DNA of 64,000 nucleotides from a virus, in IMG/VR virus record IMGVR_UViG_3300045988_079139, positions 68,378 through 132,377 of that record; one strand, written 5' to 3'. The position numbers were made by a program, and so were the translations under genes. Every line of letters starts with the position of its first letter. The stretch's first letter is position 1. Positions 57,733 through 61,245 of the stretch are shown here, piece after piece. Under the pieces are notes generated by a model that saw only the letters and a program-made list of their open reading frames with translations, searched no databases and had not been told where the DNA came from.

Positions 57733-57893
57733 GATAAAATCCTCCTTTTTATTTTTATATTCAATATTTATAAATTTTAATATAAATATATTAAATTATA
57801 CTACCCAATTAATTTATATTAAAATTAGTTAAACCATTTTTTGATTTGGGTTTACGGTTTATGCGACTGAGACCGGCCGGAGCCGCTTAAAGA

Positions 57894-58091
57894 TTACCAA
57901 CGCTTCACATAAGATTTCTTGCCGCAATAAGGGCATTTTGTTTTACGATAATCTTTCCACTCTTTAAAACTAAACCAATGAAATGCTGTTGTAAGCATCC
58001 ATTTCCAAAAATTCATTTCAAACATTTCTCCACAATTGGGACAACAAAAATGTGCTATATATTTCCTCCTTAAAATAAAAAAATGGGGCAC
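57894..58091 (-). CDS. small zinc-ribbon protein
   Basis: CPNCG...CPYCG. Confidence 0.4.
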   Translation of the reverse strand: MPHFFILRRKYIAHFCCPNCGEMFEMNFWKWMLTTAFHWFSFKEWKDYRKTKCPYCGKKSYVKRW

Positions 58092-58375
58092 TCCGAAGAG
58101 CGCCCCATAGGACTTAGCGAATAACGGCGTAGCGCTCGCTGTTCAGCTTCTCCATCATCAGGTCATATAACTTAGGTTAAATAAATATTAATTTTTAATA
58201 GCGGGTAAATCAATAAGATTAGATAAAATTCGCATATCAGTAACTGAAAGTGACCGTCCGACAGGAATGGACATAGCATTAATTACTGCCCAAATTACAT
58301 CTTCTCTTTTAACTAAATCTTCTTTATTTTGAAAAAGTTGCTCTTGCGATATTTGTAAATACATATTAAGTCTCC

Positions 58376-59740
58376 TTATGTTTCATTAGGATATTTCCAT
58401 AAAAATCCACCAGCTTTTTTTAGCTTACCTTTACAACATTTACAAATGCTTGAAATATCAATTTTTAAAGCATTACCAGCAGCAGCAGCTCCAGGCCACT
58501 CTTTTATTACCTCGCCGTCCAAAGATAATTGAAGAACTGGCTTTGCTGTGGTTTTTCTTTCATAAGGTTCGCATTTTCCCACTTTATCATATTCTTTTTT
58601 CCACATCCATAGAAATCCACCAGCAGATTTTTTATCACCATGATTTAATACTGAGCTAATCGTCGTGGCTAAAATATTTAATTCTTTCTCCACGTCCTTT
58701 TGACATTGCCACTCTTTAATATATTCGCCCTTTAAAGTAAATTGGATAAAAGGCTCACTGCCCCAATTATTTTCTCCAGATATTAAGGTTTTTCCTCTAA
58801 TCATTGATTCTTGAGTAGTATAATTACAAAAATTAGAATCAGCTGCTTGTTTAAGATATTGCCCCACCGTAGCTGATGAAACTCGTAAAATTTCGCTTAT
58901 TTCTTTAATGGTTTTTTCTTCATTCCACAAATCTGCTGCTTTTTTTACAAAATTAGATATGGCAAAATTATTACATTCTTCCCAATTAATTAAAGAAAAA
59001 TCCAATATTTCTGAAAGAGCAGATTTTAATAAAGAATTTTTTATCCATTCCATTTTAGATTTACTACAATCTAATTCAATATATATTCTAATACCATTCT
59101 CAAGAGCCATTTTCTTTTTAAGCAAATCATTAACCTGGTTACGCTCTAAATCCTCTTTATCATTGCACCAGCCAGTATAATGTTGCTGCCCATGATTTTC
59201 AATAATACAATTTAAATGAGGAATATAAATATCATATCTTTTCTTTTCCGACCAATTAAAAGTTTTTTCTATTTCATATTCAATATTTAATTGATTTAAA
59301 ACGGTATATACAAATTTATTGGGATAGCTAAGTCCATCACTACAAACGCAGCCAAAACCTTGTTGAATTAAAAGTTTAGGGGTTTGTTCCTTATGCCTTC
59401 CGCAGTCGGGACAAACCATATCAATTTTAATATGACTTTTCGGCATAGTGGTTTTCATTTGGTCTTCTGTCATATATTTTGCGAATATTTCTTTATATTC
59501 AGAAGCCCAAATGCTATTGGCATACAAGGGAGCTGGCCCAATTCTTCTATTTGAATCACAAACAGGACATTTATTTCTTTTTAAAATGTCATTGGGGCGA
59601 ACTTCCCATTTATAATCACATCTTTTACAATGATGTAAGATTTTTGTAGCACTATTTATATATTCTTCTATGGGTTCAACATAAGGAATTTTTATTGACA
59701 ATTCTTCCAGATATTGACCATGAGTTTTTTTTGGTGGCAT
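58376..59740 (-). mobile_element. free-standing homing-endonuclease-like gene: zinc fingers + Vsr/DUF559-type PD-(D/E)xK nuclease + two NUMOD1-like DNA-binding modules
   Basis: RYDIYIPHLNCIIENHGQQHY (D...IE.xG..H). C-terminal repeats ending KKSAGGFLWMWKKEY and KKAGGFLWKYPNE. AT-rich relative to neighbours. Confidence 0.6.
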
Positions 59741-59757
59741 ATAATATAGCTCCTTAA

Positions 59758-60099
59758 TTATGTGTCTAAATTATCCTTTTCTTCGTCTCCAAGAACCCAA
59801 CGCAGTGTTGCCATTACACCGTTCCAATAGCCACACTCCCAATCGCTATAACCCTCTTCGGGAATGTCATCATAAGTTGCTAGAATTCTTTCTACTGCGG
59901 CCTGACGACGAGCCTCAATCTCTGGATTATCACAAGGACTGGTTCTCATTAGCCAGACCTTATCATCTGCTTCTTTATGGTAGGCAATTAAATCTTTACG
60001 AGAGCGATGATTAAGAACTCTCTCGTGCCACCAACCAATTAAATTAGCTCCCCATTGAGTAGAATGGAGTCTATCATGTAAATTATCTCTAATGCTCAT
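59758..60099 (-). CDS. hypothetical protein
   Basis: 113-aa ORF. Confidence 0.4.
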   Translation of the reverse strand: MSIRDNLHDRLHSTQWGANLIGWWHERVLNHRSRKDLIAYHKEADDKVWLMRTSPCDNPEIEARRQAAVERILATYDDIPEEGYSDWECGYWNGVMATLRWVLGDEEKDNLDT

Positions 60100-60129
60100 A
60101 AAATAATCTCCTTATATTTTTCTATTTAT

Positions 60130-60158
60130 ATTATATCAAATTTTATTATAAAAATCAA
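60130..60158 (-). promoter_or_regulatory. consensus cassette promoter
   Basis: Forward attata 60130-60135, aatcaa 60153-60158. Confidence 0.55.
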
Positions 60159-60210
60159 GACGTGCGGCCGGCCCGGTTAGCCGGTCGGCTGACCGGCTTC
60201 CCGCACCTCG
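60159..60210 (-). terminator. GC-rich palindromic hairpin
   Basis: gacgtgcggccggcccggttagccggtcggctgaccggcttcccgcac; unusually GC-rich for this genome. Confidence 0.4.
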
Positions 60211-61115
60211 TAAGTTGAGCCTAAAATCATTTCTAATGTAATTTTATCTCTTTCCCAGTATGGGATACGAACTAATGGGATATTATTATCAATCGCCCAT
60301 TTATTTTTTCTATTATCTCTCTCTTGGCGTTTCTGTAAATCGTCTTTTGTATCATTCCATACTCCACTACGAGAGGTAAAATGTTGAATACCATCAAATT
60401 CAATCAATCTTACTACTTTTTCATTTTCCAATAAGGCAAAATCAAATCGTAGATTACCAATTTCTTTTACAGTATATTCTTTCTTATACTCAATACTATT
60501 TTCTTGTAAAATTGTTTGAATATTTGTTTCTCCAATTGAAGAAGTAATACATCCGCAGGATTGAGTCATTCCCTTACGCAGATTATAACTTTCTACATCA
60601 CACTCATTTCCACAATCGCATTTACAATGCCAAATAATACTTGATGCTCGCTTATAATCGCAAGGATATAGAGCTACTAATCTTCCAAAGCGTTGATTAG
60701 CAATATCATTTCCTTGGACCTCACGAATGAGGCATCCGCAGGACTGAGTATGATTAGAAGTTAATAAATGGGTAGGAACATTTTTATAGCCGCCGCAATC
60801 GCATTTACATTTCCATACTACACTACCATTTACTCGTTCATCAGTTCTACTTTCTACAACCAATTTACCAAATCGTTTGCCAACTAAATGGTTTAGTTTA
60901 TCTTCTTTGGCTTGTTCCTTCTCCTTTTGGAATTGTAATTTTACACATCCGCAATCGTGAGGAATATTTCTTTTCAAAGATTCTGCGGATACTTCTACTA
61001 TATTACCGCACTCACACTGGCACTTCCAATATACGTGGCGAGCACGGGATGGTGCTTTTTCAAGCACAGTTAATTTATCAAATACCTTACCGGTTAAATC
61101 ATTTAATTTTGGCAT
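60177..61115 (-). mobile_element. free-standing homing-endonuclease-like gene: three zinc-binding repeats + Vsr/DUF559-type nuclease
   Basis: Three GK.FG.L.V....W.C.C.CG...V....L.SG.T.SCGC repeats, then RFDFALLENEKVVRLIEFDGIQHF...RDNRKNKWAIDNNIPLVRIPYWE. Confidence 0.55.
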
Positions 61116-61245
61116 TTTTATCGCTCCCTTCTATATGATATAAGAATTATTACGGACACGATATCGTGTTTTGTCCAAAATTTTTAGGGTTATAGTAGAA
61201 AAAGCCCCGTCTCGCCGAGCGACGAAACGGGGCAGCCGCGTATCC

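Follow-up and report, generated by a model that had tools for sequence, protein, structure and literature searches.

The 64,000 nt of viral DNA analyzed here (IMG/VR record IMGVR_UViG_3300045988_079139, positions 68,378 to 132,377; hereafter the window) carry a 3.1 kb block, from 58169 to 61298, which by sequence comparison lies within the last 17 codons of a gene of the DUF2828/DUF7788 family (hereafter DUF2828). The block is most probably a composite, horizontally spreading homing unit, and holds two free-standing homing endonuclease genes (HEGs) of the Vsr-like, EDxHD type, called HEG1 and HEG2. The reading is founded on the anatomy of the locus, the fold and the conserved catalytic-type residues of the two proteins, purifying selection, presence/absence junctions exact to the nucleotide, and mosaic identity to relatives. 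The original prediction, made on the letters alone, saw here free-standing Vsr-type HEGs with different DNA-binding modules, selfish, and with targets in related phages. This core is supported by the comparisons made, but the extent assigned to the island (57733-61245) is not, the actual borders falling at ~58168/58169 and 61298. Relatives, coded L001 and so on, are uncultured viral contigs of 100-200 kb. No near-identical phage and no near DNA match to the window were found in INPHARED or among deposited phages, and no record was found for the exact DUF2828 protein of the window. Every gene between 54.8 and 63.9 kb is on the minus strand. The features of the block and its borders are the following:

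61246-62745, minus strand: DUF2828/DUF7788 gene (PHROG 850, 'RNA-binding protein')
61246..61298, minus strand: surrogate 3' end of DUF2828/DUF7788, last 17 codons and stop, ending in ELMKEKLDSPRYSVIH; left end of the inserted block
61204..61233, minus strand: intrinsic terminator after the functional DUF2828, 13-bp stem then T-run (-25.7 kcal/mol, z -3.9)
60187..61175, minus strand: HEG2 insertion, 989 bp, nested in the block; empty site in L127 and L128
61156..61169, no strand: ACACGATATCGTGT, a perfect palindrome of 14 nt at the 5' margin of the HEG2 insert, read from the sequence
60177..61115, minus strand: HEG2 coding sequence, 312 aa; Cys-rich repeats and Vsr-like nuclease
60159..60209, minus strand: GC-rich hairpin at the right junction of the HEG2 insert (-31.6 kcal/mol, z -3.4)
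60124..60158, minus strand: phage consensus promoter before o113, one of 15 consensus copies
59758..60099, minus strand: o113, 113-aa passenger gene (257 homologues)
58376..59740, minus strand: HEG1 coding sequence, 454 aa; zinc modules, Vsr-like nuclease, helix-turn-helix (HTH), NUMOD-like repeats
58188..58364, minus strand: o58, 58-aa gene accompanying HEG1
58114..58167, minus strand: relic of the native DUF2828 3' end, encoding YDLMMEKLNSERYAVIR and stop; 96% identity to the L006/L086 3' end over 55 nt
58083..58108, minus strand: native DUF2828 terminator, 11-bp stem then T-run (-21.2 kcal/mol, z -5.3)

The two HEG open reading frames (ORFs) are real and lie where they had been placed, both on the minus strand. 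Each is a separate gene with its own ribosome-binding site. The inventory of genes between them had missed o113, which has a strong promoter of its own. The small ORF proposed next to HEG1 exists, as do its 58 codons and its AAGGAG site, which overlaps the HEG1 stop; its coordinates are 58188..58364, 11 nt off the 58199..58375 first given.

The window DUF2828 tracks its closest relative, L001 (97% aa identity), up to ~61299, and then switches to an ending of the L120/L125/L127 type. The boundary of the relic falls at the same codon as the switch, homology to the L006 gene ending abruptly at 58168. The surrogate end is recoded (e.g., Ser from AGC to TCT, Arg from CGC to AGA). Identity to L127 is 69.6% in the gene body, 98% in the surrogate end and terminator (61176-61279), 93.5% in the hairpin flank, promoter and o113, and 75.6% in the relic and its terminator; genes further downstream are unrelated. 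Despite this last value, the relic starts at an identical nucleotide position in the window and in L125, L127 and L128. The 'xPRY' ending is exclusive to alleles with a HEG or o113 cassette downstream, and is missing in all the ~59 tabulated alleles lacking a HEG just downstream. The terminator at 61204..61233 is conserved in L127, L128 and L120, and travels with the surrogate end; that at 58083..58108 has its homologue downstream of DUF2828 in L013-L015. Read most simply, the pattern means that a copy of the block (surrogate end through last HEG) entered diverged phages at one and the same position of the gene, where the end of the recipient stayed behind as a relic. The surrogate end keeps DUF2828 intact; it probably also makes the gene uncuttable, recoding being the putative source of immunity.

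The duplicated 3' end might alternatively stem from illegitimate recombination, or from a tandem duplication followed by deletion, no nuclease being involved and the HEGs being later squatters in non-essential DNA. The order o113-HEG-DUF2828, as in L121, is a possible ancestor, from which duplication, with subsequent loss of most of the second DUF2828 copy, could give o113-HEG-relic; at the relic-side junction there is no homology. Yet the surrogate end is heavily recoded and no copy of its native counterpart, and its type is shared, at 98% identity, with phages in which identity of the gene body does not exceed 70%. Moreover, the same insertion point is found in L127 and L128, next to different relics and downstream genes. 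An origin of this kind is very improbable.

Within the block, HEG2 is itself an insertion. The HEG2-less allele is found in two independent contigs (L127 and L128), where ...CTAAAAATTTTG/ACCGGCTAACCGGGCC... is followed by the o113 promoter (the slash marks the insertion point; the empty-site sequence in L127 is CTAAAAATTTTGACCGGCTAACCGGGCCGGCCGCAC). In the window and L125 the insert sits between the same two bases, with a 3-nt GAC microhomology, and comparison with the HEG2-less relatives sets its limits at 60187-61175. The final two codons and the stop of HEG2 are supplied by the flank, and the flank half of the hairpin at 60159-60209 (ACCGGCTAACCGGGCCGGCCGCAC) is present already in the empty site. 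Exchange reaches into the gene upstream: identity to L120 is 84% over 60219-61311, a segment with HEG2 and the final ~65 nt of DUF2828, against only 51% between the two DUF2828 proteins. The 14-nt palindrome ACACGATATCGTGT lies upstream of the HEG2 ribosome-binding site, and could be an operator for autoregulation.

A mosaic HEG is found at the HEG2 position in L129 (1-750). Its nuclease domain is in a block ~94% identical at the DNA level to that of the window gene (60177-61115), while identity in the region of the Cys-rich repeats is ~46% at the protein level. The pattern suggests an exchange of DNA-binding parts, made at the boundary between the two domains.

Three unrelated HEGs occupy the slot that extends from the o113 stop to the relic. 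In the window and L129 it is HEG1 plus o58 (94% identity between the two at the nucleotide level), in L125 a 537-aa gene of the HEG2 family, and in L127 and L128 a GIY-YIG/NUMOD1 gene. In close relatives the slot is thus filled from three nuclease families, one Vsr-like with zinc and NUMOD modules, one likewise Vsr-like but with Cys-rich repeats, and one of the GIY-YIG type. In a survey of 72 unique DUF2828 alleles, 46 had no adjacent HEG2-family gene; such genes lie just upstream of DUF2828 in 13 of the 65 alleles in which the upstream neighbour could be assessed, and just downstream in 14 of 66. The interval between DUF2828 and the major-vault-protein-like (MVP-like) gene further down, 3916 nt long in the window, measures between 81 and 7491 nt across 27 relatives, short examples being 81-172 nt.

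The HEG1+o58 pair is also found in a second, unrelated context. The 58192-59731 segment is 84.8% identical to L116 7731-9270, and in L116-L119 the cassette resides between gyrB-like and gyrA-like genes. No other detectable DNA is shared by these contigs and the window, and no flanking sequence is common to the two contexts. The o58 protein is 82% identical to the L116 copy (pN/pS 0.28), and L130 carries at the gyrB/gyrA site a 71% identical HEG1 homologue not followed by o58. Thus, as read from the sequences, the genes are mobile, as indicated by the exact empty site of HEG2, the second context of HEG1+o58, and the three HEGs sharing one slot, and their description as acquired selfish elements is upheld: relatives lack the same genes at the same loci, and catalytic residues are present in both proteins. 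The pS values to the nearest copies in other contexts are 0.4-0.5, and do not date the acquisition. In L116 (4313-7238) and L130 (1160-4085) the gyrB-like gene is broken by a GIY-YIG HEG, and a separate 60-aa ORF for the GyrB C-terminus is left directly upstream of the HEG1-like cassette, the topoisomerase genes of these contigs being a second HEG cluster.

The constant cargo of the block is o113. No family match for o113 was found in scans of domain and family libraries; its pN/pS is 0.07, its identity to the L127 copy 93.5% at the nucleotide level. The gene resides in other genomic contexts in L121, L134 and L137; in L121 it is upstream of DUF2828, a HEG being located in between. The notion that o113 and o58 are a pair older than HEG1 was dropped, as no match to o58 was obtained by tblastn for the 59-aa ORF which follows the L121 copy of o113.

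The catalytic domains of HEG1 and HEG2 are Vsr-like variants of the restriction-endonuclease fold, and align to each other with invariant S, D, I-E, G-x-Q-H, D and K in common. The core is made up by D170, E181-N-H183-G-Q-Q-H187, D205 and K208 in HEG1, and by D225, E239-F-D241-G-I-Q-H245, D267 and K270 in HEG2, all these positions being invariant across 30-34 homologues. Both proteins had been expected to end in a D...IE.xG..H core; the core is there in both, but in HEG1 it is central (residues ~135-230). The residues of the EDxHD motif are E25, D51, H64, H69 and D97 in Vsr, corresponding to E170, D196, N208, H213 and D222 in I-Bth0305I (PMC3239194). The candidates are E196, D225, D241 (with E239), H245 and D267 in HEG2, all invariant, and N141 (Glu in some homologues), D170, H183 (with E181), H187 and D205 in HEG1. 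Their order and spacing fit the motif, as judged by mapping motif spacing onto the published numbers (PMC3239194), the position of Vsr H64 being taken by His in HEG1, Asp in HEG2 and Asn in I-Bth0305I. Both proteins are predicted to be active nucleases. All four genes of the block are under purifying selection (pN/pS 0.07-0.29; 0.19-0.28 for HEG1, 0.12-0.29 for HEG2).

Both proteins fall in PHROGs 559, 9084 and 7140, annotated as homing or intron-encoded endonuclease. Direct and profile (two profiles) searches of PDB gave nothing significant for either protein, the best relevant match being 3hrl at E=1, and no significant sequence match to Vsr or I-Bth0305I (3R3P) was found. Pfam models for Vsr or DUF559 did not match at E<=0.1, matches being at most weak or partial: DUF2726 scores 17.1 bits in HEG2 (cut-off 24.7) and 25.4 bits in its homologue P0150. 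The NCBIfam scan returned nothing useful. HEG1 and HEG2 are members of large families of a known kind, biochemically uncharacterized. An HNH identity was discarded, as Pfam HNH models did not match and the catalytic domains are Vsr-like in fold. A group I intron or intein context was discarded as well: searches with Rfam of 56500-63000 (E<=0.1) found no intron or other RNA family around the HEGs, and free-standing is the proper term for them.

The DNA-binding modules of the two proteins differ, as had been noticed. HEG1 features a treble-clef zinc module (C38, C41, C58, C61), a second zinc module (C110, C113, C131, C133), the nuclease domain, an HTH (263-301), and two C-terminal NUMOD/I-HmuI-like repeats ending in GGFLW (~331-380 and 402-449). 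The repeats score below the Pfam cut-offs (PF22083, 21.1 vs. 27 bits; PF07453, 18.4 vs. 22.8), but a 71%-identical homologue (P0005) exceeds the thresholds for both I-HmuI-NUMOD and NUMOD1 (32.9 and 28.8 bits). The NUMOD-type tail is the sole part of HEG1 recognized by PADLOC ('HEase', 3e-9, residues 392-452). HEG2 is made up by three Cys-rich repeats, W-x-C-x-C-x-C-G ... S-C-G-C (~8-57, 79-128 and 140-189), and a C-terminal Vsr-like nuclease (~190-300), and matches PHROGs 374/559/9084. No Pfam model covers the repeats. They are present in hundreds of cultured phages, in many cases on proteins with an HNH domain that go by the names 'HNH endonuclease' or 'AP2 domain'. The HEG2 family (>7,600 homologues) is often mislabelled as HNH; this label, attached to PHROGs 374/559 and to many GenBank homologues, derives from other proteins, which share with HEG2 the Cys-rich repeats only.

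The HEGs are AT-rich, as stated in the original prediction. GC content is 31.5% in HEG1, 29.9% in o58 and 35.8% in HEG2, vs. 40.8% in the window (sd 4.3 in 1-kb windows), 47.6% in the MVP-like gene and 51.3% in DUF2828; o113 (41.8%) does not stand out. The minimum 1-kb GC of the whole window is inside HEG1. Other low-GC stretches (~2.3-3.0 kb and 19.5-20.3 kb) are ordinary genes, such as the gene for an NAD-dependent ligase, and the rest of the window holds no further copies of HEG1 or HEG2. GC-rich palindromes had been thought to bracket the island. The predicted fold of that at 57865-57890 is no more stable than those of shuffles (z -0.36), and the hairpin at 60159-60209 is real (z -3.4) yet internal to the block; the class of motifs is not enriched in the window (3 matches vs. 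1.2 expected; 9 of 100 shuffles reach 3).

The promoter preceding o113 belongs to a set with the consensus TTGATTTTT..TGWTATAATAT, of which the window contains 15 copies, all on the minus strand, with none expected by chance. Each copy is 35 nt long (extended consensus TTGATTTTT-N-TG[AT]TATAATAT[AT][AT]AT). Positions in the window are:

14843, 17972, 26031, 35197, 36148, 40529, 43754, 47545, minus strand: promoter copies 1-8
48585, 50814, 52222, 54728, 57367, 60124, 62824, minus strand: promoter copies 9-15

Together with an upstream terminator, the promoter forms an intergenic repeat of ~50 nt, which is found many times also in L081. As no terminator was found between o113 and 58108, o113, HEG1 and o58 probably form a single transcript, running from the promoter at 60124-60158 to 58083-58108. 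The native DUF2828 terminator now probably ends this transcript.

The probable transcription of HEG1 along with a passenger from a strong phage promoter is atypical of HEGs kept under tight silencing, and bears on a different view of the locus, according to which the proteins are domesticated or competitive nucleases, directed against the DNA of rival phages or of the host, or DNA-binding regulators, their patchiness reflecting the turnover of accessory genes in a hypervariable region. The DUF2828-MVP interval is indeed hypervariable, as its size range in the 27 relatives indicates, and it also includes window-unique, non-nuclease genes of equally low GC (o94 and zn65); a DUF262+HNH nuclease gene is adjacent, and pN/pS values of 0.1-0.3 indicate that the proteins are kept functional. 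Against this view, the cassettes have borders exact to the nucleotide, they move as units from one unrelated context to another and among phages in which the flanking genes are 51-62% identical, and flanking gene sequence is co-converted with them. Cutting rivals and homing are, in addition, compatible activities, both being combined in the marker exclusion by the seg and mob genes of T4 (PMC2988022). This view is unlikely, though less so than a duplication without nucleases.

Homing of the block would start in a cell co-infected by this phage and by a relative lacking the block. A block nuclease, placed by its sequence-reading modules (the three Cys-rich repeats in HEG2; zinc modules, HTH and NUMOD-like repeats in HEG1), would cut the naive allele in or close to the final ~55 bp of DUF2828 or, alternatively for HEG2, at the intergenic site AAAATTTTG/ACCGGCTAACC (the slash marks the junction). 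Phage recombination would mend the double-strand break, the genome with the HEGs serving as template; homology would be provided on the left by the body of DUF2828, on the right by the old 3' end and its terminator. Recoded surrogate 3' end, terminator, HEG2, promoter with o113, HEG1 and o58 would be copied in, and the 3' end of the recipient would stay as a dead relic. HEG2 would represent a later or separate nested insertion, and the slot on the relic side would be refilled over time by different HEG families.

Several observations weigh against homing as set out here. Three unrelated HEGs adjoin the relic, so that no one enzyme is singled out for the in-gene insertion. Searches of IMG/VR and JGI metagenomes for o113 directly abutting the relic, and for extra copies of the block, returned nothing close, so that no allele with an empty slot is at hand in these collections. 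A single ancestral event, later disseminated by ordinary recombination, could explain the identical start of the relics in place of repeated cutting. HEG2 lacks a recognizable phage promoter of the main type, and is situated behind the DUF2828 terminator. In HEG1, N141 occupies the position of the first Glu of the family. Finally, the last 17 codons of DUF2828 are average in DNA conservation (0.64 vs. a mean of 0.655 in 67 alleles); the idea that the target is an unusually conserved stretch gained no support, and the usual argument that HEGs target conserved sites is therefore of no help.

The layout of the block, made up by surrogate end (61246-61298), HEGs, and relic (58114-58167), is that of the mORF gene hybrids of fungal mitochondria, described for atp6 of Allomyces macrogynus and for atp6, atp9, cox2 and nad3 of Glomus (PMC3630166). 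In both systems the host gene continues in frame into a foreign C-terminal end, set apart for the most part by recoding; an endonuclease ORF comes next, then the native C-terminus as a displaced relic, and transfer between lineages is horizontal. The block differs from mORFs in being found in a bacteriophage, in having Vsr-like nucleases (GIY-YIG in relatives) instead of LAGLIDADG enzymes, in featuring its own terminator, promoter, passenger gene and up to two HEGs, and in that the endonuclease is not fused to the host gene. 'Intronless homing' by T4 seg and mob genes and the 'HEG islands' of ICP1 and further phages (PMC2988022, PMC10448857) likewise involve free-standing HEGs beside or between conserved genes, co-conversion of flanks, and clusters of several HEG classes replacing each other at one locus. 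In contrast to these systems, the block is inserted inside a coding sequence, the insertion being compensated by a surrogate gene end, and its nuclease family differs from those of T4 (seg, GIY-YIG; mob, HNH).

Among Vsr-like homing endonucleases of the EDxHD class, which also includes Hef of the T-even phage U5, I-Bth0305I of Bacillus phage 0305phi8-36 is intron-encoded, and has N-terminal NUMOD repeats and a C-terminal nuclease. HEG1 has N-terminal zinc modules, a central nuclease, and HTH and NUMOD-like repeats at the C-terminus, while HEG2 relies on three Cys-rich beta-repeats lacking a Pfam model. NUMOD modules of I-HmuI and I-TevI are on an HNH or GIY-YIG domain, those of HEG1 (sub-threshold in Pfam) on a Vsr-like one. 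The enzymes are thus homing endonucleases of a known kind; new are the surrogate-end-plus-relic architecture in a phage and the interchangeable nuclease slot. A full-text literature search retrieved no phage example of this layout, which is no proof that none exists.

HEGs are a main driver of phage mosaicism, but for those that are free-standing it is seldom known what they target and where they insert. The locus offers junctions exact to the nucleotide, natural empty and alternatively filled alleles, and short candidate targets (the last ~55 bp of DUF2828 and the AAAATTTTG/ACCGGCTAACC site), and cleavage specificity is therefore testable for two large Vsr-like HEG families. It also shows a HEG block entering a coding sequence without a splicing element and carrying along a passenger gene. 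We give even odds to the broader view that phages home into coding sequences with neither intron nor intein, by means of a surrogate end and terminator keeping the gene functional and immune, a promoter-driven passenger and a nuclease slot with exchangeable contents. Phages would then have their own equivalent of the mORF hybrids, and HEGs a route for moving cargo between phages with 50-60% identical flanking genes. Two DNA-binding architectures on a small Vsr-like nuclease are of possible interest for builders of targeted nucleases.

The genes flanking DUF2828 and the block are:

62912-63880, minus strand: DUF262+HNH nuclease gene (DUF262 = GmrSD N-terminal; PADLOC REase_II 3e-68)
57894-58091, minus strand: zn65, zinc-ribbon ORF
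57448-57732, minus strand: o94
54805-57330, minus strand: MVP-like gene, 841 aa

The DUF262+HNH gene is found just upstream of DUF2828 also in L001 and L037 (~60% identity) and in L002-L005 (41%); its product may be a further nuclease against competitors. Both zn65 and o94 are as AT-rich as the HEGs, and have no homologue in any of the loci fetched. The start of zn65 is ambiguous, a GTG being located within the stem of the relic terminator, and a good AAGGAGG site at ~58062 preceding an ATA codon. The 841-aa MVP-like protein features shoulder and repeat domains of the Major Vault Protein (PF11978, 3.9e-21; PF17795, 7e-9). Among deposited phages, matches to this protein (~40% identity) are confined to uncultured huge phages of 462-735 kb; in many IMG/VR contigs the gene adjoins DUF2828. 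L007 and L094 are both derived from the 402 kb contig IMGVR_UViG_3300032167_000002, which carries two MVP copies, 93% and 75% identical to that of the window, and probably represents two related phage genomes joined in one assembly.

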